This document shows, piece by piece, positions 9,480 through 59,344 of a stretch of 64,000 nucleotides of DNA. This stretch comes from Escherichia phage vB_EcoM_G10400. The stretch lies in the sequence record MK327937.1; one strand, written 5' to 3'. The stretch's first letter is position 1; the number at the start of each line of letters is the position of its first letter. Made by a program: the position numbers and the translations under genes. The notes beneath the pieces were generated by a model, which was given only the letters and a program-made list of their open reading frames with translations, had not been told where the DNA came from and searched no databases.

Positions 9480-11293
9480 TGGTGTTTAACCCTATGCATG
9501 ATTTCTTTATTTTTGCCGAGATTAAATCCACGTTCGTTCGGATTTCCCAAATAACCACAAGTTCTTCTTATTGTGTTCATCTTTTTAGGATCAGTTTCTC
9601 CACAAATAGAACAAACAAACCCGTTTTCAGTAGGAGTCATTTCATGGGTACTTCCACACGTAAAACATTTATCTACTGGCATGTTAACACCAAAATAATC
9701 TAAATGTTGTGCAGCATAATCCCAGACAGCCTCAAGACCTTTTAGGTTATTTTTCATATCAGGAAGTTCAACATAAGAAATGTGACCACCTGTCGCAATG
9801 AAATGATATGGCGCTTCACGAGAAATTTTTTCAAACGGAGTAATATTTTCTTCTACTGAAACGTGGAAACTATTAGTGTACCAGCCTTTATCGGTAACAT
9901 CTTTTACACTTCCATATTTTTCTGTATCAAGTTTACAGAAGCGATAACAAAGGTTTTCAGCAGGAGTCGAATATAAACTAAAAGCAAATCCAGTTCTTTC
10001 AGTCCACTGTTTAAGATGAGCATTCATTTTAGTTAAAATTTCTTGTCCAATATCACGACCGACAAGAATATTCAATTCGTGAATACCAATGTATCCTAGG
10101 GACACTGAACTTCTACCATTTTTAAATAACTCAATTATATCGTCATCAGGTTTAAGACGAACCCCGAATGCACCTTCTTGGTAAAGAATAGGAGCAACAG
10201 TCGCTTTAACTCCTTTTAAGGAACTAATTCTACACATCAAGGCTTCAAAGCACAGATCCATTCGTTCATTAAATAGCTCAACAAATTTCTGTTCATTGAA
10301 CTGTGTTCCAATATAAGAATCTAATGCGATACGAGGAAGATTCAGTGTTACAACACCGAGATTATTACGTCCATCAAGAATTTCATTACCAGTCGAATCT
10401 TTCCATACGCTCAAGAAACTACGGCAGCCCATCGGAGAAACAGGAATAGATGAACCAGTGATAGCTTTATTGTTCTTAGCTGAAATAATATCAGGATACA
10501 TCCTTTTGCTTGCACACTCTAGAGCAAGCTGCTTAATATCATAGTTCGGATCGTCTTTATAAAGATTAACACCTTCTTCAACGAACATAACAAGCTTAGG
10601 GAAAATAGGAGTTATCCCATCACGACCGAGACCTTTAATACGATTTTTCAGAATTGCTTTCTGAATCATTCGTTCAGTCCAGTCAGTTCCCGTACCAAAT
10701 GTAATTGTTACAAAAGGTGTTTGCCCGTTTGAACTAAAGAGAGTATTTACTTCATATTCATAAGCTTGAAATGCATCGTATACATCTTTTTCTGTTTTAG
10801 ATTGAGCATAATTCAACGCATCAGCGATTTGCCATTTTTCTGCATCCTCAATATGTTTTGCATAGGTGCGTTTAACATAAGGAGAAAGTACTTTATCTAC
10901 ATTAGCAAAAGTCGTTCCGCCGTATTGGTGAGAAGCAACCTGTGCAGTAATTTGTGCCATAATTGCAGTAGCAACTCCAATTGATTTAGGAGTTTCAATC
11001 TGTGCATTACCAAGCTTAAATCCGTTCTCAAGCATTCCTTTTAAATCTACTAAACAGCAATTAGTAAAAGGCAATGATATACTGTAATCTAAATCATGAA
11101 AATGAATTAATCCAACATTATGGGCATTTACAATATGACTTGGAAGAATACGACAAGCGATATGTTTAGAAACAATACCGGCCATTAAATCTCTTTTTGT
11201 TGGAAAGACGCGAGAATCTTTGTTGGCGTTTTCCGTATTTAATTCTTTATCTTTATTTGAAATAAAATTTAAAACATCTTTTTCTAAAGACAT
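9476..11293 (-). CDS. nrdD: Anaerobic ribonucleoside-triphosphate reductase
   Basis: 605 aa uninterrupted ORF; C-terminal glycyl-radical motif (RRTCGYLG) and a Cys-rich zinc site. Confidence 0.95.
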   Translation of the reverse strand: MSLEKDVLNFISNKDKELNTENANKDSRVFPTKRDLMAGIVSKHIACRILPSHIVNAHNVGLIHFHDLDYSISLPFTNCCLVDLKGMLENGFKLGNAQIETPKSIGVATAIMAQITAQVASHQYGGTTFANVDKVLSPYVKRTYAKHIEDAEKWQIADALNYAQSKTEKDVYDAFQAYEYEVNTLFSSNGQTPFVTITFGTGTDWTERMIQKAILKNRIKGLGRDGITPIFPKLVMFVEEGVNLYKDDPNYDIKQLALECASKRMYPDIISAKNNKAITGSSIPVSPMGCRSFLSVWKDSTGNEILDGRNNLGVVTLNLPRIALDSYIGTQFNEQKFVELFNERMDLCFEALMCRISSLKGVKATVAPILYQEGAFGVRLKPDDDIIELFKNGRSSVSLGYIGIHELNILVGRDIGQEILTKMNAHLKQWTERTGFAFSLYSTPAENLCYRFCKLDTEKYGSVKDVTDKGWYTNSFHVSVEENITPFEKISREAPYHFIATGGHISYVELPDMKNNLKGLEAVWDYAAQHLDYFGVNMPVDKCFTCGSTHEMTPTENGFVCSICGETDPKKMNTIRRTCGYLGNPNERGFNLGKNKEIMHRVKHQ

Positions 11294-12105
11294 AATTCTA
11301 ATTTATCCTTTTGAAATTCTTCGTCTAAATATGGGTTCCAACCCATTTTAAACCTTTTGATGAAATTATCAATTCTAAATTTCGGTAAGTTTAAATCCGC
11401 AAAAATAGATGATTTACTTTTAAAATCTGGACTTAAATAATCATATAAAATTTCTGCGTATTTTAACCATAATATACAAGTACCAGATTTAATTGCTCTT
11501 GGAGTTTTCCAAGGTTTTACACCATACATCGGATTTCCGCTTCCTTTATGCCTGATAGAAGATGAAATTCCAATTTTAATTTTAGCTTCCTTTGTATGCG
11601 AAAATCCACGATGTGGATTTTCTTTCCAGTATTTTTTAGAAGCTTCTGATATTTTCTTTCTAGCTAAATTAGTATGATGCTTTCCATAAAATCCATGATT
11701 TTTGCCTTTATTACGATTTCTTTTAATCATGGTTATTGATTGCTTTTCTCTAGTTTCTTTAGAAGGAGAAATACCATATGTCGTAAATCGGCCATCAGCA
11801 TATGCTAAATTAAAATACTCTTTATTCCATACATCTTTTTCTATATTCTTTTGAAATTCAGCTTCAATGCTAGTTATTTGTTCATCTCCGACTAATTGAA
11901 AATATAATATTTCAACTTTCGGCGTTTCTTTCAATAAGGCTTTTTGAAATTCGGAAGATGACGAAGACGAATAATAAAATTTACCATTTTTATCAATAAT
12001 ATTCGTTCCATCAAAAGTGCAATTGGTTTTACTTCCAATGTAATAATATGGTGGGGTTTTAGCATTAATTCTATTAATAAATGATAGTTTATATACTACA
12101 TTCAT
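11284..12105 (-). CDS. GIY-YIG family homing endonuclease (free-standing)
   Basis: 273 aa; N-terminal GIY-YIG-like motif (VYKLSF...YYYIGSK) followed by repeated H-T-x-E-x-K-x-K-I-type DNA-binding motifs; its stop overlaps the nrdD start. Confidence 0.7.
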   Translation of the reverse strand: MNVVYKLSFINRINAKTPPYYYIGSKTNCTFDGTNIIDKNGKFYYSSSSSSEFQKALLKETPKVEILYFQLVGDEQITSIEAEFQKNIEKDVWNKEYFNLAYADGRFTTYGISPSKETREKQSITMIKRNRNKGKNHGFYGKHHTNLARKKISEASKKYWKENPHRGFSHTKEAKIKIGISSSIRHKGSGNPMYGVKPWKTPRAIKSGTCILWLKYAEILYDYLSPDFKSKSSIFADLNLPKFRIDNFIKRFKMGWNPYLDEEFQKDKLELCL

Positions 12106-14452: not shown

Positions 14453-14842
14453 TTAATCCAAAATATTATTAGGCATTGGTTGAACACTCACAAGTTCTTT
14501 AAAGAACTCAGTAGAGTCAGGCAATTTAACCATTTCCGGAGCATGCTTACTGAATTTATGTTTACATTGACGGCATTTATATTCAAGCTCTGGTTTACGC
14601 CAGTTAATCAATTGAACTTGTTCAGTACCGCATTCAGGGCAATTAGGAACGTTTTTAGAAGCTCTTTCACGTCGTTCAACCATAGCCATAATAGCATCCC
14701 ATGCTGGAGGTTTAAAATCTAAATCGTCGCAGCCGTGAATCTTTCCACGCATTTCCATATCATCTTCCTCACCAGCCATAATAATTTTAATTAAACTGGA
14801 ATTACTTGAAGCTGCAATGTCTTCTAATAAACGCTTTTTCAT
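14453..14842 (-). CDS. Zinc-ribbon protein
   Basis: 129 aa with a CPECG...CRQCKHKF Cys4 ribbon. Confidence 0.5.
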
Positions 14843-15765
14843 TTCAATACCTCAATAGCATTACGTAAACCATTTGCTTTTGCATTAAGAGCTTTTAACA
14901 ATTTGGTGTGTTCTGCAATTTGGGCTTCAACTTCAATCAAACGGGCATTGAGATATTCACGTTCTTCACTCAGATTATCAACCTTTTCTACTTTAGGCTC
15001 TTTTACAACTGTCTTATATGTATTAGGGTTCTTCAGTTTAATTAGAATGCGTGAACTGTATAACATTGAACCATTATCTTCGGTTTCATCATACATTTCT
15101 ACTACGTCCATGATTTTTAACATCATGCGGAGTTTATAAGACAATGAACGAATAGTTTTGTTGTGCTTATTAATTTCTCTAGAGTTCATGGTGCCGAGAT
15201 TACGTGAGTAATAATAAGGAACCTGGATATTAATTAACACTGATGAACCACCTGGCTTGTGTGTTACTTCATCAGCAATAACCCAATCCTTAACATGAAC
15301 TGTATTTGTACGGTCATCGCCTGCGGTAAATAGTTTGCAAGCATGCTTAAAAAGCATATTCACTTGGGTATTGAATTGACAAGCAAATTTATCAGCAAAT
15401 TTAGTTTCAGGAATGGTAGATAACCAATCAGCTAAATGGGTCTTTTTAACATCGTTAACAATAGTAAATTCAACCAAATCGGTTATAGATGTCGCAGTTT
15501 TAATGAATCTCGGCTTCATAAAGTTTTTAATGTTATCGCGAGCTACAGTAGAAGATAACATACGAGAACGTTTAAACCATTCAAGCAAATTGCCTAACGA
15601 ATGAGAATAAGCGTTTTGAGTATCTTTACAGATATGATTTTCCTGGCCAACATATTGAAGGAAATCACGAAGAATATTATTAATTACTGCTCTGTGTCCG
15701 ATCTGATAATTGTGGTGTTTAGTAATAAGACTGTCAAAATAATCAATATAATGTTTACGAGTCAT
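14839..15765 (-). CDS. Hypothetical protein with C-terminal coiled coil
   Basis: Track ORF 14839-15816 begins with a TTG; the ATG at 15763-15765 follows a GAGGAG ribosome-binding site (308 aa). C-terminal ~50 aa is a heptad coiled coil. Confidence 0.55.
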   Translation of the reverse strand: MTRKHYIDYFDSLITKHHNYQIGHRAVINNILRDFLQYVGQENHICKDTQNAYSHSLGNLLEWFKRSRMLSSTVARDNIKNFMKPRFIKTATSITDLVEFTIVNDVKKTHLADWLSTIPETKFADKFACQFNTQVNMLFKHACKLFTAGDDRTNTVHVKDWVIADEVTHKPGGSSVLINIQVPYYYSRNLGTMNSREINKHNKTIRSLSYKLRMMLKIMDVVEMYDETEDNGSMLYSSRILIKLKNPNTYKTVVKEPKVEKVDNLSEEREYLNARLIEVEAQIAEHTKLLKALNAKANGLRNAIEVLK

Positions 15766-15822
15766 ATTAATCTCCTCAGTAGAAAGTAAGAACATTATAC
15801 CACATCCTTGTGGCAAAGTAAA

Positions 15823-16845
15823 CTAGTTCAGTGCATTTAGTGCGTTGTTCAGTTTAGAACGTTGCTTTGTCAGATTTTGAACCCTTGACTGAGCTTGTTC
15901 TAACGCCTTTTCAGCTTCTAGCACTTCATTGGTCGCTTTAACGAGTTCATCATCTACTGCCTTAAGAGACTTCTCAATCGCGTCAGCGTGCCATTTTTCT
16001 ACAGGTTTAAAATTTGAATTTTCAGTAGGAAGAAAACTCACTTTATTAAGTTTACATGCATCTATATTGCTTGAGCTATACATCCAAAATTTAGGATCGT
16101 TTGATAAGTAATTGGATAAATTTAAGTTATCTTGCACTTCCTGCTTTTTCTCTTGCGGGACTTCGTCCTTTCTCAAAAAATCGTATTTAAATGAAACGAT
16201 CATATCAAGTTCATATGTTGTTGTATGTTCCCAATTTCGCTCAAAACGAGGTAAAATCTTAGATTGAACAGCAGCAACAACATCCATATACTTAAATGCT
16301 TCTGTCAACTGTGATTTAAGGCATTCACAAATTGAAAGAGAATTTTTAGTATTAGGCTTAAAGCTAATTCGTGCAGTTCTATTATTTTCTTTAGATGGTC
16401 TTACTTCCATTTGAAGAGTATAACCATCAAATTTCAGATTCTTTAAGTTAATATCAGAACCTTTTAATCGACTAGCCGTCGACAAAATTTGCTTTAATTG
16501 TCTACGGAACAGAGCAATAAATCTCCATTCAAGACGATAATGATTTGGATTGAAAAATCCAGATGATAAATCGACCTTACTTTGACCAACGCCTCGAACA
16601 AATAGAGGATTTTTATAATCAATAGTTTTACAGAAATCGGTGAGCTGCTCACGAGCAGTCATTTGTGTAATATACCCCGCTTCATTAAAATTACGCACCC
16701 ATTCACTGCTGTTTAGATGTTTAAAGGCGTGAATGGAACAATTAACTTTATCAGGGTCTAAATTATTTTCACACAAAAATGTCATAACATCACAAGTATA
16801 ACTGGCATTACGAACCATATCTTCAATTTGAGAACGAGTTTTCAT
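15823..16845 (-). CDS. Hypothetical protein with C-terminal coiled coil
   Basis: 340 aa; ATG start with AAGGA ribosome-binding site; C-terminal coiled coil. Confidence 0.55.
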   Translation of the reverse strand: MKTRSQIEDMVRNASYTCDVMTFLCENNLDPDKVNCSIHAFKHLNSSEWVRNFNEAGYITQMTAREQLTDFCKTIDYKNPLFVRGVGQSKVDLSSGFFNPNHYRLEWRFIALFRRQLKQILSTASRLKGSDINLKNLKFDGYTLQMEVRPSKENNRTARISFKPNTKNSLSICECLKSQLTEAFKYMDVVAAVQSKILPRFERNWEHTTTYELDMIVSFKYDFLRKDEVPQEKKQEVQDNLNLSNYLSNDPKFWMYSSSNIDACKLNKVSFLPTENSNFKPVEKWHADAIEKSLKAVDDELVKATNEVLEAEKALEQAQSRVQNLTKQRSKLNNALNALN

Positions 16846-16853
16846 GGTGTTCC

Positions 16854-17741
16854 TTAAGATTTAAGTAAATCAACAATTTTAATTAATTTTTCACGCTCAG
16901 ATTTAGCTTTACTACTCAATCCAGATAGTCTGAAAATTTCATCATCATATTGCTGAATAGAAATATTTAGCTCTTCAATCTGCTTATTAAAATAAGCAAT
17001 TTGTTCAGAATGTTTTTCATTACTGCGAACTGGTACAGGTTTTGTAGGTAATTTAGATGAACTGGATTCATCCGGGCGATAAATTAAAATACAACTTGAA
17101 CCAATCGGACATTTAGCACCAGACACATATTCTAATGTTCCAGCTTCTTTTAAAACTTCAAAAGCTAAACAGAGATGATGACCCATATTGACATAATCTG
17201 TAGAGCGAGCTCTGATGTAATAATCATCTCCACGAATACTAAATTTAAAGCATTTAAGGTCTTCTGTATTATTGGTCTTAAAAATCATTTGTTTATCTAG
17301 ACCTTTAGCTAATCGAGCGCCTAATGCTAATAATCGTCGTTGATTTTCCCACAAATCCGCGATCATTTGGTCAAATGATAATTTCGGCATTAGTCGACCA
17401 TAAAGGTCGTATCCTTTATTATAATTGCGAAGGATTTCACTCGCGTTAATGCGAGACAACGCTCCAATTTTATTAAGGGCTTTCATGATGCGATTAGATA
17501 AAAGCATTCCAGACCCGTTTGTTCGTTGTAAATGTTTTTCTAATCCAAATCCAATATCAACTTTAAACTTATCTAAAATTTCGGCGTGAACATCTTTATC
17601 AATAACATTTAAATTTAGTACTGGGTTAAATTTATGAAAAAATTTATCTGACTCGTCGTGTTGAAGTACAGTCCATTCATTTGATTTTTTATTAACTAAA
17701 GATTTAATTACTGCATTGACATTATTAATTACTACTGACAT
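16854..17741 (-). CDS. Hypothetical protein with C-terminal coiled coil
   Basis: Track ORF 16854-17765 begins with a TTG; the ATG at 17739-17741 follows a GAGGA site (295 aa). C-terminal coiled coil. Confidence 0.55.
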   Translation of the reverse strand: MSVVINNVNAVIKSLVNKKSNEWTVLQHDESDKFFHKFNPVLNLNVIDKDVHAEILDKFKVDIGFGLEKHLQRTNGSGMLLSNRIMKALNKIGALSRINASEILRNYNKGYDLYGRLMPKLSFDQMIADLWENQRRLLALGARLAKGLDKQMIFKTNNTEDLKCFKFSIRGDDYYIRARSTDYVNMGHHLCLAFEVLKEAGTLEYVSGAKCPIGSSCILIYRPDESSSSKLPTKPVPVRSNEKHSEQIAYFNKQIEELNISIQQYDDEIFRLSGLSSKAKSEREKLIKIVDLLKS

Positions 17742-17748
17742 ATTTTCC

Positions 17749-18150
17749 TCACTCAATTTTACCAATTACGCGGAATAAGATTGAACAGACTATATAAGCA
17801 CCGCATATAGATTGAACTAATGCCATTCCAAAGAACCAAACAATATTATCAAACCATGTCTGTTTTACGTCGAAAGGACGTAAACTTACAGTAATATTAT
17901 CGCCTTTTTCTATTGAAGAATACATCTCCGGTGAAATATATTCACTAAATCTATAACCGTCATTTAGTTCATATACGGCAATAAACGATAAACTAGACCC
18001 CTTTCCTTGAGTTCCTGCAAGGGTATTAACTACAGTAACATCATAATCTTTATAATGCATATAATCATTAATAGCATAATAACCATATGCAATTACTATA
18101 CATAAACAACATATCAATAAATTCAATCTTTTAATTATCAACTGTTTCAT
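17749..18150 (-). CDS. Membrane protein
   Basis: 133 aa with N- and C-terminal hydrophobic helices. Confidence 0.5.
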   Translation of the reverse strand: MKQLIIKRLNLLICCLCIVIAYGYYAINDYMHYKDYDVTVVNTLAGTQGKGSSLSFIAVYELNDGYRFSEYISPEMYSSIEKGDNITVSLRPFDVKQTWFDNIVWFFGMALVQSICGAYIVCSILFRVIGKIE

Positions 18151-18205: not shown

Positions 18206-18733
18206 TTATGCGAGTACCGTCTTTAACCGTTCTTCAAACTTCCGAAGAGTATTTTGGCGTTCAGCTCTTTGCTTTTTGTAAGTTTCAATACGCTCTGAAA
18301 TGAGAGTGTATCGTTCATTTACTGATTCTTTCATAAAATCAGGAATTTCACGAGAAGCTTTAATCTCATCAAATTTATCAATAACAGCTTGCTCTTCAGC
18401 AATTAAGTTATCATACATCAAAATATCTTTCTTGATGAACTCAATATCTTCTTGAGTTACACGAGATAATTTAGATGCTTTATCCTTTTTGTACTGTTCG
18501 TTAGTATCACGAGACCAGTGTAATATACGATTTTTATTCATATTTTTGTAAATTTCTACAATACCAATCTCATCGATAATAACGATCCAATTCCAACGAG
18601 ATTTGTAAATTTGTCCTCCATCAACAGTGATTTCACCTCCGATTGAGATGTCATTAAAGAACTTGCTTTGTGCTTCAGATTTAAATTTACCATCATTGTA
18701 GTTTACCAAGTTGAAAATATCTTTAGCATTCAT
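18206..18733 (-). CDS. Hypothetical protein
   Basis: 175 aa; GGAGGA ribosome-binding site; downstream of the early promoter at 18755-18800. Confidence 0.5.
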   Translation of the reverse strand: MNAKDIFNLVNYNDGKFKSEAQSKFFNDISIGGEITVDGGQIYKSRWNWIVIIDEIGIVEIYKNMNKNRILHWSRDTNEQYKKDKASKLSRVTQEDIEFIKKDILMYDNLIAEEQAVIDKFDEIKASREIPDFMKESVNERYTLISERIETYKKQRAERQNTLRKFEERLKTVLA

Positions 18734-19198: not shown

Positions 19199-20167
19199 TT
19201 ATTTCAGAAGAGTAACCTCAGCGATTTCTTCCCAACCGTTTTTGTCGGTCATAATAAAGTCAGCAAGATAAAGAGCAGTACGCAGTGAAACATTACGTAA
19301 ACGGTTAACATTGACTTTCATCCATGATAATGCTTTATAAGTTTCTTCATCAGAAAGACCGCGCTTTTGCATCATGTCGGTTGAAAGAATAACATCTTCA
19401 ACCCTGACCATAATTTCTTCATTAGTGTGAACACCCAAATCTAAATAAACTGAGCGGGACACTAATGCTTGTAAATGTGGAGCAAGTTTAGTACCACGGT
19501 CTAATTCGCGGTCAATATCAACGTTTGTGATAAAAACAATCGTTCCTTTAAATTCAAACTCACGCTCAATGCCTTTTTCTTCTAAGTAAGAAGATGCAGT
19601 GCTCCAGCAGACTTTACGGGTCTCTCCAGTGTCCAGAGCGGCTTTTAGAAGATTAAGAATGTCCATATCAGAGAAAACATCCACATCATCAATCAAAAGG
19701 ACAGAATTCTCTTCACGATTATTCCAAAGCTGCTCATAAAGACCAATGCCAGAGATTTTACCGTTAATGCTTTTATATTCAATGTATCCATTATCATTTG
19801 CTTTATTCAAAGCTTTATCTAAAGAATACGTTTTACCAATACCTGCTGCACCAGAGATAATTAATGAACGAATGTTTCCGTTAATAATACCATTCGTCAT
19901 CATTCCCATAACATTAAATCTTTTATTAATGCGGGTTTTCATATCTTCATATGATTCTTTAACTTCTTCAACTTTTACACCATCATATGAAATGTCTGAT
20001 TTGTAAACCCAAACACCGCGACGTTTACCGTCAATTTCAACAAAAACTTTACCATCTCCTTGTGCATCTACCGGAGCATTATCTGGGAACCATTCGCCTA
20101 AGAGCTCAAAAGTTCCAGAGATTTCTTTACCAAAGTAGATACCCTTATTGATAGTTACAGTTTTCAT
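19199..20167 (-). CDS. P-loop ATPase (AAA-like)
   Basis: Track ORF runs to 20284, but the ATG at 20165-20167 (MKTVTINKG) follows a GGAG site and lies downstream of the promoter at 20195-20250 (322 aa). Walker A GAAGIGKT, Walker B VLLIDDVD, sensor-like FITN. Confidence 0.6.
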   Translation of the reverse strand: MKTVTINKGIYFGKEISGTFELLGEWFPDNAPVDAQGDGKVFVEIDGKRRGVWVYKSDISYDGVKVEEVKESYEDMKTRINKRFNVMGMMTNGIINGNIRSLIISGAAGIGKTYSLDKALNKANDNGYIEYKSINGKISGIGLYEQLWNNREENSVLLIDDVDVFSDMDILNLLKAALDTGETRKVCWSTASSYLEEKGIEREFEFKGTIVFITNVDIDRELDRGTKLAPHLQALVSRSVYLDLGVHTNEEIMVRVEDVILSTDMMQKRGLSDEETYKALSWMKVNVNRLRNVSLRTALYLADFIMTDKNGWEEIAEVTLLK

Positions 20168-20280: not shown

Positions 20281-21294
20281 TCATTTATAATAACTTCGAT
20301 GGTTTTCAAGATAGACCTTCTCAAGGAAGTCATCCCAAAAACCCATGTCCACTTTTTGCTGCATACCGTTCTTAGAAGCTTCAGTAGATGCTGCTTCTAC
20401 TTGATCGACCACATCTTCCAAAAACTCTTGAACGGTTTTAAATGGATGTTTACCCAACTTCACGTCAAGAATAAATGGAGCGTCTTGAAGTGGATAAACC
20501 AAGTCGCCAGTTTTGTAAATTTCCAATAGTTGAAGTCCACCACGACAGGCATGGCTCAGAGCTTTCCAGTCAATACCTTCATTGGCTTCGGCCTTACGAG
20601 CACGTTCACCGTATTCAGCATCTAATTTGTTCAGTGACTGCTTAAGCTCAATAAGAGAAAGCGTTGTCTGATATTTACGACCCAACACTGTGTAAAACGT
20701 TTGTGGGCCTGTTTTCTCATGATTATGGAACACCCATTCACAGAATTCGTTTTCTGGAAGACGATGCTTAATATCTTCAACTTTAGTACGACGCTGCTTA
20801 ATAGAACCATCTTCTTGGTAATCAACCCATTGCTCAGGGATTTGATTAACTACTTTCAATACATCACGTAATGCAGCCAAACGAGAACCCTTGACACCGT
20901 ATTTAGAAGCTTGCTTGCGGACATATCCTAAATATGATTTCATGTTAGTCGTATAAAAACGAAAACGGTTGTCTTGAATAAACTTCCACACATCAGGCAA
21001 ATCAGATTTAACCACTAGTTCAGGTGGAGTGTGAAGCATATCCAACGCTACAGTTTCACCGTCTGCTGCTAATTTAAAGAAATATTTAAGACTGTATAGT
21101 TCATGGTCAATATCATCTTTAGTGTTTTTAGATGATGTATTGTTAGTGTTTTTACTCATATGCTCTTTGACATTTCCGATAAGAATATCGCGAGCAGGAG
21201 GAACAAAGATTTCTTTAAAATCTACATCAGATTCTGGGGTAGAAGTTCCATAAAGATGGCTACCAAAATAACTTTTCATTACTGTTTTCATCAT
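20281..21294 (-). CDS. Nucleotidyltransferase-fold protein (pol-beta superfamily-like)
   Basis: 337 aa; N-terminal YFGSHLYGTSTPESDVDF matches the G[SG]-x9-13-DxD nucleotidyltransferase signature, with a further acidic cluster (DDIDHE) about 40 residues later; helical C-terminal region. Confidence 0.55.
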   Translation of the reverse strand: MMKTVMKSYFGSHLYGTSTPESDVDFKEIFVPPARDILIGNVKEHMSKNTNNTSSKNTKDDIDHELYSLKYFFKLAADGETVALDMLHTPPELVVKSDLPDVWKFIQDNRFRFYTTNMKSYLGYVRKQASKYGVKGSRLAALRDVLKVVNQIPEQWVDYQEDGSIKQRRTKVEDIKHRLPENEFCEWVFHNHEKTGPQTFYTVLGRKYQTTLSLIELKQSLNKLDAEYGERARKAEANEGIDWKALSHACRGGLQLLEIYKTGDLVYPLQDAPFILDVKLGKHPFKTVQEFLEDVVDQVEAASTEASKNGMQQKVDMGFWDDFLEKVYLENHRSYYK

Positions 21295-57886: not shown

Positions 57887-59344
57887 ATGATTGAATTAAA
57901 AGAGTTACCTTTTGTTGATAGCGTTCCTGGCGAAGGTCAGGAACGTATTTCATGGATTAAAAATGGTGAAGAAATATTAGGAGCTAGTACTAAGTATGGA
58001 AACGATGGGTCAATGAATAGACCAACTGTTTCCGTGTTTAAAAACGTCGAGGTTCTCGACGAAAATGTAGGAATTCTTAAAACTGCCATTGAAACATCTC
58101 AGGAAGATATTAAAACTATTCAAGGCATTTTAGATGTATCAGGAGATATAGAAGCGCTATCACAGATCAGCGTTAATAAAAATGATATATCAAGTTTAAA
58201 GACGCTCACAAGTGAACATACTGATATATTAAATGGTACAAATACTACGGTTGATAATATTCTTTCTGATATTGGTCCATTTAATTCGCAAGCAAATTCA
58301 GTTTATAGAACGATTAGAAATGATTTGTTATGGATTAAAAGGGAATTAGGACAATATGCTGGACAAGATATTAATGGTCTTCCTGTTGTAGGAAATACCA
58401 GCACGGGAATGAAGCATCGTATTATTAATAATACAGATGCTATAACTTCCCAAGGAATACGTCTAAGTGATTTAGAAGAAAAATTTATTGAATCTGATGT
58501 AGGTTCGCTTACAATCGAAGTAGGAAATCTTAGACAGGAATTAGGACAAAGACCACCTTCATTTAGTGAAAGTATATATTCACGTGTGCATAATTTAGAT
58601 CAATCTCAAATTAATCTTAGTTCCGAAATTAAATCTATCAAAACTTCTATTGGATATCCAGGAAATACTTCAATAATCACAGATGTTAACACTAATACAC
58701 GAGAAATTTCAGCTTTAAATGATGAACTAAATAAAAGTGGCGGCGTTAAACAGCGATTAACTGTTATTGAAACATCGATTGGTTCAGATGATATTCCTTC
58801 TAGTATTAAAGGTCAAATTAAAGATAATACCACTTCTATTGAATCTTTAAATGGAATTGTAGGTGAAAACACCTCGTCCGGTTTAAGAGCTAACGTTTCA
58901 TGGCTAAATCAGATAGTTGGAACTGATTCTAGCGGAGGTCAACCTTCTCCTCCGGGGTCTCTTTTAAATAGAGTTTCAACAGTTGAAACCTCTGTTAATA
59001 GACTTAACAATGATGTTCAAAACTTACAGGTTGAAATTGGTAATAACAATTCCGGAATTAAAGGGCAAGTTGTAACATTAAATAAATTAGTAAATGGAAC
59101 AAATCCGAATGGTTCAACTGTCGAAGAACGCGGATTGACTAATTCAATAAAAGCTAATGAGACTAACATTTCTTCAATTAATCAAGAGATTCGTAGTATT
59201 AAAGGTAATGTGTCCTCATTACAGAGGGATGTCCAGACTTTACAAGAAGCTGGTTATATTCCTGAAGCTCCAAAAGATGGTCAAGCTTACGTTCGTAAAG
59301 ACGGCGAATGGGTATTGCTTTCTACCTTTTTATCACCAGCATAA
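57887..59344 (+). CDS. wac: Fibritin (whisker protein)
   Basis: 485 aa; long heptad coiled coil and C-terminal foldon-like sequence ([27 protein letters not shown]). Confidence 0.9.

Follow-up and report, generated by a model that had tools for sequence, protein, structure and literature searches.

The early genes clustered around nrdC in T4-like phages raise the question of what nrdC.1 to nrdC.11, called 'thioredoxin' in many deposited GenBank genomes, encode, and why several neighbouring products are so similar in size and build. We address it for a 64,000-nucleotide stretch of Escherichia phage vB_EcoM_G10400 (MK327937.1), referred to below as the window, in which three neighbouring open reading frames (ORFs) are the orthologues of the T4-type early genes nrdC.3, nrdC.5 and nrdC.6. 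A further gene, nrdC.4, is absent from the window; in most Tequatroviruses, T4 and Shigella phage JK38 among them, it lies between nrdC.3 and nrdC.5 and encodes a protein of ~333 amino acids (aa). Profile comparisons indicate that nrdC.3, nrdC.4 and nrdC.5 are diverged paralogues of one family, related in both heads and tails, and that nrdC.6 probably belongs, as a remote member, to the same superfamily. The family is confined to T4-like phages (Straboviridae), and the real setting of the array is an anti-defence island, not nucleotide metabolism. With moderate confidence, we interpret these early genes as a diversifying family whose products inhibit host defences stoichiometrically and share an oligomerising tail. 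The genes themselves were already known; new here are the family link, the shared tail and the variable region.

Relationship of the N-terminal heads

Pairwise BLASTP among nrdC.3, nrdC.5 and nrdC.6 returns nothing significant, and both Pfam and PHROGs split the ORFs into three families (PF26897, PF23882 and PF26899 in Pfam), none of which has a known function. A first pass of hhalign with shallow alignments gave no clear signal between them. With alignments enriched in Gaprivervirus, Dhakavirus, Mosigvirus, Moonvirus and Gelderlandvirus sequences, hhalign yields collinear matches between nrdC.3 and nrdC.4 (probability 97.9%, E = 5.5e-13, 227 columns), nrdC.4 and nrdC.5 (94%, E = 1.4e-7, 249 columns), and nrdC.3 and nrdC.5 (62%, E = 7.5e-5, 228 columns). 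When the heads alone were compared, using the shallower first alignments, the corresponding values were 98.0% (E = 1.8e-13), 27% (E = 6.6e-4) and 3% (E = 0.014), while the tails alone align weakly (best E = 7e-4). An N-terminal M(K)TR..YI is common to the three families, and this similarity reaches the DNA level. E-values from the global mode of hhalign were discarded, as the unrelated EndoVII scored 0.0019.

The connection to nrdC.6 is more distant. A merged profile of nrdC.3, nrdC.4 and nrdC.5 matches nrdC.6 at 59% (E = 9.5e-5). Merlin gp91 and Melville gp079, which themselves match the nrdC.3/.4/.5 profile (96.9%, E = 1.5e-10), raise the match to nrdC.6 to 87% (E = 3.7e-6) when added to it, over 69 core columns that comprise the core helices. 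A Foldseek search of BFVD with the AlphaFold2 model of nrdC.6 (all models discussed here are monomers) finds a full-length match to gp91 of Citrobacter phage Merlin, as well as ~300-aa proteins of Enterobacter, Pectobacterium, Acinetobacter and Yersinia T4-like phages. The nrdC.5 model gives two weak full-length matches in the same database, to proteins of Serratia phage CBH8 and Salmonella phage Melville, the rest being noise. Secondary-structure elements occur in the same order in the nrdC.5 and nrdC.6 models.

A preliminary description of this locus, made from the sequence, had proposed a diversified family with a common oligomerisation module. The profile comparisons uphold the family, and the link is stronger than was proposed, since heads as well as tails are related (probably so for nrdC.6). 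Compared all against all, the N-terminal domains fall not into three unrelated known families, but into three related Pfam families of the DUF (domain of unknown function) type. Their order is conserved in other T-even genomes, spanning four genera, and the canonical array has four members, including nrdC.4, where the description had three. The distribution of the family is very narrow: a search of 1.84 billion representative proteins with the nrdC.5 profile found only 13 proteins. A profile search of NCBIfam gave nothing usable for the family, and the PADLOC models gave no match to nrdC.3, nrdC.5, nrdC.6, nrdC.7 or nrdC.8 at E ≤ 0.1.

A shared coiled-coil tail

In each of the three proteins, a head of ~225–245 aa is followed by a linker that is disordered or modelled with low confidence, and then by a heptad helix of 42–59 aa at the C-terminus. 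The preliminary description was right about three consecutive ORFs of 308, 340 and 295 aa, lengths that agree with ATG starts, and about a C-terminal heptad coiled-coil propensity in all three. Its division of each protein into an N-terminal domain of ~250 aa and a coil of ~50 aa holds for the approximate sizes; it omitted the linker between the two and the S-G-L turn that breaks the tail of nrdC.6.

Coiled-coil propensity was measured by an ad hoc heptad score, based on hydrophobicity at positions a and d in 28-residue windows, against 200 shuffles per protein. The top-scoring window lies in the C-terminal tail of nrdC.3 (z = 4.0; one of 200 shuffles reaches the observed value), nrdC.5 (z = 5.7; none of 200) and nrdC.6 (z = 2.8; two of 200), and helices are modelled in the tails of the latter two. 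A C-terminal score of at least 8 is found in five of the 84 window ORFs, namely nrdC.3, nrdC.5, nrdC.6, nrdC.8 and the ORF at 57887–59344. The last of these is fibritin (Pfam Fibritin_C, E = 2e-34) and serves as a positive control for the score; the Rad50-like gp46, the other top scorer and also a true coiled-coil protein, provides a second. Given five positives among 84 ORFs, three would be adjacent by chance in ~1% of arrangements.

The a and d positions of the nrdC.3 tail are mostly L, I, V or A. In nrdC.5, the heptad register is unbroken across 56 residues, and the AlphaFold2 model contains a single helix at residues 281–339, with a predicted local distance difference test (pLDDT) score of 61–91. 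It follows a linker whose residues 223–276 have pLDDT values below 50 and whose sequence blocks are the least conserved. The nrdC.6 model (pLDDT 77.7; predicted template modelling score 0.65) has a low-confidence linker at residues 226–240, and its tail is modelled as a helical hairpin folded back on itself, not as one continuous coil.

Counted from the C-terminus, the tails of nrdC.3, nrdC.4, nrdC.5 and nrdC.6 share one unbroken heptad register, ending in LRNAIEVLK, LEQALQLIK, LNNALNALN and LIKIVDLLK(S), respectively. A terminal motif defined post hoc, L-x-x-[AIVM]-[ILVM]-x-x-[LI]-[KN], closes exactly three of the 134 window ORFs of at least 60 aa, and these are nrdC.3, nrdC.5 and nrdC.6. The three also fit the narrower form L-x-x-[AI]-[ILV]-x-x-L-[KN], which closes no further window ORF. 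The same motif closes T4 NrdC.4, the nrdC.5-like and nrdC.6-like proteins of JN02, and Merlin gp91. Conservation of the tails equals or exceeds that of the heads; in nrdC.3, mean pairwise identity is 0.87 for the tail and 0.77 for the head. The product of nrdC.8 also has a heptad-rich C-terminal region (score 10.1 at residues 145–172; tail ending in ...ERIETYKKQRAERQNTLRKFEERLKTVLA) and is 67–99% identical across four genera. Its head has no profile similarity to the family, and nrdC.8 is not counted as a member.

Natural variation of the array

The gene order nrdC.6, nrdC.5, nrdC.4 or nrdC.3 is also seen in Gaprivervirus, Dhakavirus and Mosigvirus. Among phages that are otherwise ~95% identical, nrdC.3 falls into allele classes of ~96%, 75% and 59% identity, with the divergence concentrated in residues ~90–270. 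The window copy is one of the divergent alleles, sharing only 60.5% identity with T4 NrdC.3 and 98% with the copy of Shigella phage JK38.

The presence of nrdC.4 varies between phages, and its loss from the window has left a recognisable junction. In T4 and JK38, nrdC.3 starts with ATGAAAACTCGTAAA and nrdC.4 with ATGACTCGTAAC; in the window, the body of nrdC.3 directly follows the first 11 bases of nrdC.4, which in turn follow the promoter-like intergenic region. The fusion lies at the paralogous ACTCGTAA, which argues that nrdC.4 was lost by recombination between the paralogous 5' ends. The early-promoter-like site upstream of the junction matches 10 of 12 consensus positions, with the TG present, overlaps the hairpin TGCCACAAGGATGTGGTA, and is conserved in T4 and JK38. 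It is located upstream of nrdC.4 in T4 and directly upstream of nrdC.3 in the window.

Other members of the array have been truncated, split or recombined. The nrdC.6 of the T4 reference genome (NC_000866) encodes 275 aa and leaves the family tail after ...QIEEL (…IFLFNNMMMKFSDYLD; L005:10067-10894); judged from its sequence, this C-terminus looks like the result of a frameshift that has lost most of the coiled coil. Frameshifts split nrdC.5 into two ORFs in SP18 (L004:4956-5860) and Ec_YwIITB1 (L022:4245-5306), and these copies are either pseudogenes or sequencing errors. In gp094 of Salmonella phage Manna (L019:3215-4252), residues 1–266 of nrdC.6 are joined in frame to residues 251–333 of nrdC.4 at a 'DEI' microhomology. 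Another chimera, P0033, joins residues 146–272 of nrdC.5 to residues 128–308 of nrdC.3, and phage ACG-C40 (L020:3805-4216) has an out-of-frame deletion running from nrdC.5 to nrdC.3. A 173-aa metagenomic protein, P0202, combines an unrelated 120-aa N-terminus with a 53-aa tail identical to that of NrdC.5. A search of phage genomes for a gene of this type returned ordinary nrdC.5 genes only; P0202 represents either a genuine tail transfer or a chimera from assembly, and it carries no weight here as evidence.

At the same locus, Merlin gp91 (L024:15166-16170, Moonvirus) and Melville gp079 (L025:3929-4918, Gelderlandvirus) are the sole family members. Each adjoins a conserved protein of ~260 aa (Merlin gp92 and Melville gp080) without a coiled-coil tail. 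We read the alleles of nrdC.3, the gain and loss of genes, the split copies, the chimeras and the very narrow distribution together as the signature of an arms race.

Anti-defence setting and proposed mechanism

T4 nrdC.5 is an early gene that restores the plating of a deletion mutant on cells carrying the ECOR17 Dsr1 system, and NrdC.5 expressed alone from a plasmid rescues a large-deletion T4 mutant on Dsr1 cells (Srikant, Guegler and Laub, eLife 2022; PMC9391042). The middle ORF of the window is orthologous to this protein, with the same locus and strand and a full-length match to DUF7235. As the two are 91.8% identical, the window nrdC.5 is, by orthology, a putative anti-Dsr1 factor. Its neighbours have related roles: gp49.2 inhibits OLD (PMC13096335), NrdC.1 inhibits Septu (bioRxiv 2025.11.20.689424), and Pin, the Lon inhibitor, is also encoded in the window. 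Dsr1 detects the major capsid protein through a tetratricopeptide repeat (TPR) sensor domain. Our preference for a family of inhibitors rests on the activity of NrdC.5 against Dsr1, on those of gp49.2 and NrdC.1 against OLD and Septu, and on the sensing of capsid protein by Dsr1; it is an inference that the inhibitors bind their targets directly, that the tail drives oligomerisation, and that nrdC.3 and nrdC.6 act against host defences.

The proposed protein plan comprises a conserved N-terminal helical part, a variable alpha/beta core (predicted order: long helix, G-x-D, beta-hairpins, helix, beta-hairpin), a flexible linker and a coiled-coil tail of 6–8 heptads. The paralogues would be early, dispensable accessory proteins, made ahead of the late proteins that trigger immunity. 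Each would use the fast-evolving part of its head to bind a single immune protein of the host, which in the case of NrdC.5 would be Dsr1, a sirtuin NADase. The tail would dimerise or oligomerise the inhibitor and so confer avidity for oligomeric targets. The sensor could then be blocked before the late trigger appears, by analogy with DSAD1, which in cryo-electron microscopy (cryo-EM) studies reportedly binds the sensor region of DSR2. A speculative extension, which we consider quite improbable, is that the paralogues form a toolkit of sensor blockers directed against different capsid-sensing TPR receptors, a group that Dsr1 shares with Avs7 and other effector fusions. Because the tails share their register and terminal heptads, mixed oligomers of paralogues are conceivable, and these might neutralise several receptors at once.

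Several observations weigh against the inhibitor family. NrdC.5 is the only member with experimental support, which comes from T4 rather than from the window phage. nrdC.3, nrdC.4 and nrdC.6 are without known target, and a literature search on these three found no functional data. Both nrdC.6 and nrdC.8 are kept in all 741 matching phage records, a retention that would suit a conserved housekeeping function better than an expendable counter-defence gene. The membership of nrdC.6, though probable, rests on a link of moderate strength: the TM-score of the Foldseek match to Merlin gp91 is low (0.23), and a comparison with the nrdC.6 sequence alone places it third among 53 window ORFs, barely above background (E = 0.011; the best unrelated ORF has 0.022). 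The AlphaFold2 model of nrdC.5 is poor overall (pLDDT 52), and an analysis of g–e' charge pairs in the tails gave no signal for homo- or hetero-association. Finally, when the three family profiles were run against PDB sequences, no relevant match appeared at E ≤ 1; since the head has no relative in the PDB, its fold lends no support to any particular mechanism.

Alternative roles

The paralogues, possibly together with nrdC.8, might instead co-assemble through compatible tails into one hetero-oligomeric complex with a single function. The genes are adjacent and tightly packed in their conserved order (nrdC.6, nrdC.5, with or without nrdC.4, nrdC.3), and their tails have the same register and terminal heptads, as such a complex would lead one to expect. 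However, plasmid-borne nrdC.5 acts alone in the rescue of the large-deletion T4 mutant (PMC9391042), and members are lost singly in nature: nrdC.4 in the window, nrdC.5 in ACG-C40 and SP18, and nrdC.3 in Dhakaviruses and Gapriverviruses. Merlin and Melville have one member only. We regard a common complex as unlikely.

Slightly less likely again is a role of the tail as a docking element for one common partner, either a host factor or a phage protein such as nrdC.8, with specificity provided by the heads. The tail is conserved at every heptad position, beyond a and d, and its last ~20 residues have a mean pairwise identity of 0.88–0.99 in nrdC.3 and nrdC.4. Two nrdC.3 alleles differ by many synonymous changes within the conserved tail, which indicates purifying selection and not recent exchange, and the intramolecular hairpin modelled for nrdC.6 would also be compatible with docking. 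Nevertheless, no partner is known, and sequence conservation between the families is confined to the last ~10 residues. In addition, the last 10 codons of nrdC.3 overlap the start region of nrdC.2, so part of the conservation of this tail may be imposed at the DNA level.

We consider it very unlikely that these proteins are dimeric DNA-binding regulators, with an N-terminal helical part equivalent to the SAM-like domain of tyrosine recombinases. This possibility arises from nrdC.3 residues 29–87 (15505–15681), the segment where the heads of the different families are best conserved; these residues weakly match the tyrosine recombinase and XerD models of NCBIfam (E = 3.7e-4 and 0.011) and Phage_int_SAM_1 of Pfam (E = 0.089); six of 15 family members match at E-values of at least 0.077. 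These matches are far below the curated cut-offs (13.5 bits against 22.3, and 19.8 bits against 279), the similarity was not found in scans of nrdC.4, nrdC.5 and nrdC.6, no catalytic recombinase domain is present, and the profile search of PDB sequences was empty.

If the three proteins were unrelated and had an amphipathic C-terminal helix in common only by chance, this would account for the failure of BLASTP and for the three separate Pfam and PHROGs families, but coincidence or convergence of this kind is largely excluded, for nrdC.3 and nrdC.5, by the profile–profile matches, the shared N-terminal M(K)TR..YI, the conserved gene order, and the register and terminal motif that end exactly three of 134 ORFs.

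Comparison with known systems

The published work on T4 NrdC.5 (PMC9391042) describes a genetic rescue only, and offers neither a mechanism nor a domain analysis or family assignment, whereas the present analysis describes a tandem family of four paralogues with a coiled-coil tail. A functional analogue of NrdC.5 is DSAD1 of SPbeta-like Bacillus phages, also a phage protein that neutralises a defence-associated sirtuin; DSAD1 represses DSR2, according to two cryo-EM studies (PMC10981675, PMC11087589). The two differ in host range, and no sequence relationship was seen in the profile searches of PDB sequences, where the presence of DSAD1 chains was not checked. We know of no coiled-coil tail in DSAD1.

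T-even anti-defence islands, such as the neighbourhood of gp49.2 and NrdC.1 or the anti-toxin–antitoxin island with tifA, dmd and adfA, are likewise clusters of small, early, dispensable and fast-evolving genes. Each of their genes counters one host system, and the three ORFs lie 1–3 kb from gp49.2 and NrdC.1. The island genes known so far are singletons with no relationship to one another, whereas the nrdC array represents one fold expanded by tandem duplication. Fibritin (wac), encoded in the same window, has similar heptad scores. However, it is a structural trimer made late and consisting largely of coiled coil, whereas the coil of the nrdC proteins is a short C-terminal appendage on early, non-structural proteins.

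Gene identities and coordinates

The window phage is T4-like (Tequatrovirus). The 2.9-kb region of the three ORFs is 93–96% identical to many Tequatrovirus genomes, and the locus is collinear with gene 49, pin, 49.x, nrdC and nrdC.1 to nrdC.11 of T4. Its features are listed in Table 1. ATG starts are favoured for nrdC.3, nrdC.5 and nrdC.6 because they fit the lengths of homologues and the Shine-Dalgarno sequences (GAGGAG, AAGGA and GAGG, respectively). The nrdC.5 ORF matches positions 1–307 of the 307 in PF23882 with 395 bits (E = 2.7e-118), compared to a gathering score of 30 bits. Members of nrdC.3 match the same model weakly and in the tail only (best E = 0.012), and nrdC.6 gives no match to it. 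The nrdC.8 product is 97.7% identical to its T4 counterpart.

A thioredoxin or glutaredoxin identity was rejected for the three ORFs, which have no match to a thioredoxin family in Pfam or NCBIfam and contain no CxxC motif. The 'thioredoxin' label appears to have been copied from the name of the adjacent nrdC gene; one deposited genome names nrdC.7 'Mur ligase domain-containing'.

Table 1. Positions of the nrdC array and associated features in the window.
Feature	Position	Strand	Description
nrdC.3 orthologue	14839..15765	-	308 aa from ATG, 325 aa from upstream TTG; phrog_1435 (E = 2e-116); PF26897
nrdC.3 heptad tail	14842..14967	-	aa 267-308; above-threshold windows span residues 258-308
nrdC.4-deletion junction	15755..15765	-	ATGACTCGTAA and upstream sequence correspond to the T4/JK38 nrdC.4 5' end, downstream sequence to nrdC.3
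Early-promoter-like site	15794..15822	-	(G)TTTACT, 17 nucleotides, TATAAT, extended TG; consensus match only
nrdC.5 orthologue	15823..16845	-	340 aa; Pfam DUF7235 (PF23882)
nrdC.5 C-terminal helix / heptad tail	15826..16005	-	aa 281-340
nrdC.5 linker	16006..16179	-	aa 223-280; low-confidence, probably disordered
nrdC.6 orthologue	16854..17741	-	295 aa from ATG, 303 aa from TTG; phrog_2257; PF26899
nrdC.6 tail	16857..17021	-	aa 241-295; helices 241-271 and 277-294 with invariant S-G-L turn between them
nrdC.7	17749..18150	-	predicted membrane protein in the T4 annotation; between nrdC.6 and nrdC.8
nrdC.8	18206..18733	-	175 aa; C-terminal heptad tail, head unrelated

Beside the array lies the conserved pair nrdC.10 and nrdC.11 (19199–20167 and 20281–21294, minus strand). 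The nrdC.10 product has matches below threshold to AAA/STAND-type NTPases, and that of nrdC.11 matches the RlaP family (RNA repair pathway, DNA polymerase beta-like nucleotidyltransferase) with E = 1.4e-11. A 273-aa ORF with a NUMOD3 motif (11284–12105, minus strand) adjoins gene 49 (EndoVII) and probably encodes a homing endonuclease of the seg/mob type.

Implications

The analysis corrects a widespread misannotation of the three ORFs as 'thioredoxin', and the array explains part of the variation in gene content among hundreds of T4-like phages that are candidates for therapy. The variable region at residues ~90–270, tail-less proteins, head swaps and the natural chimera of Manna offer handles for mapping the interaction with Dsr1. 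NrdC.5 is among the few known inhibitors of sirtuin-type, NAD+-depleting defence, and it has three tandem paralogues with the same head–linker–coil plan. These paralogues, nrdC.3, nrdC.4 and nrdC.6, are concrete candidates for undiscovered anti-defence activities in the best-studied phage.

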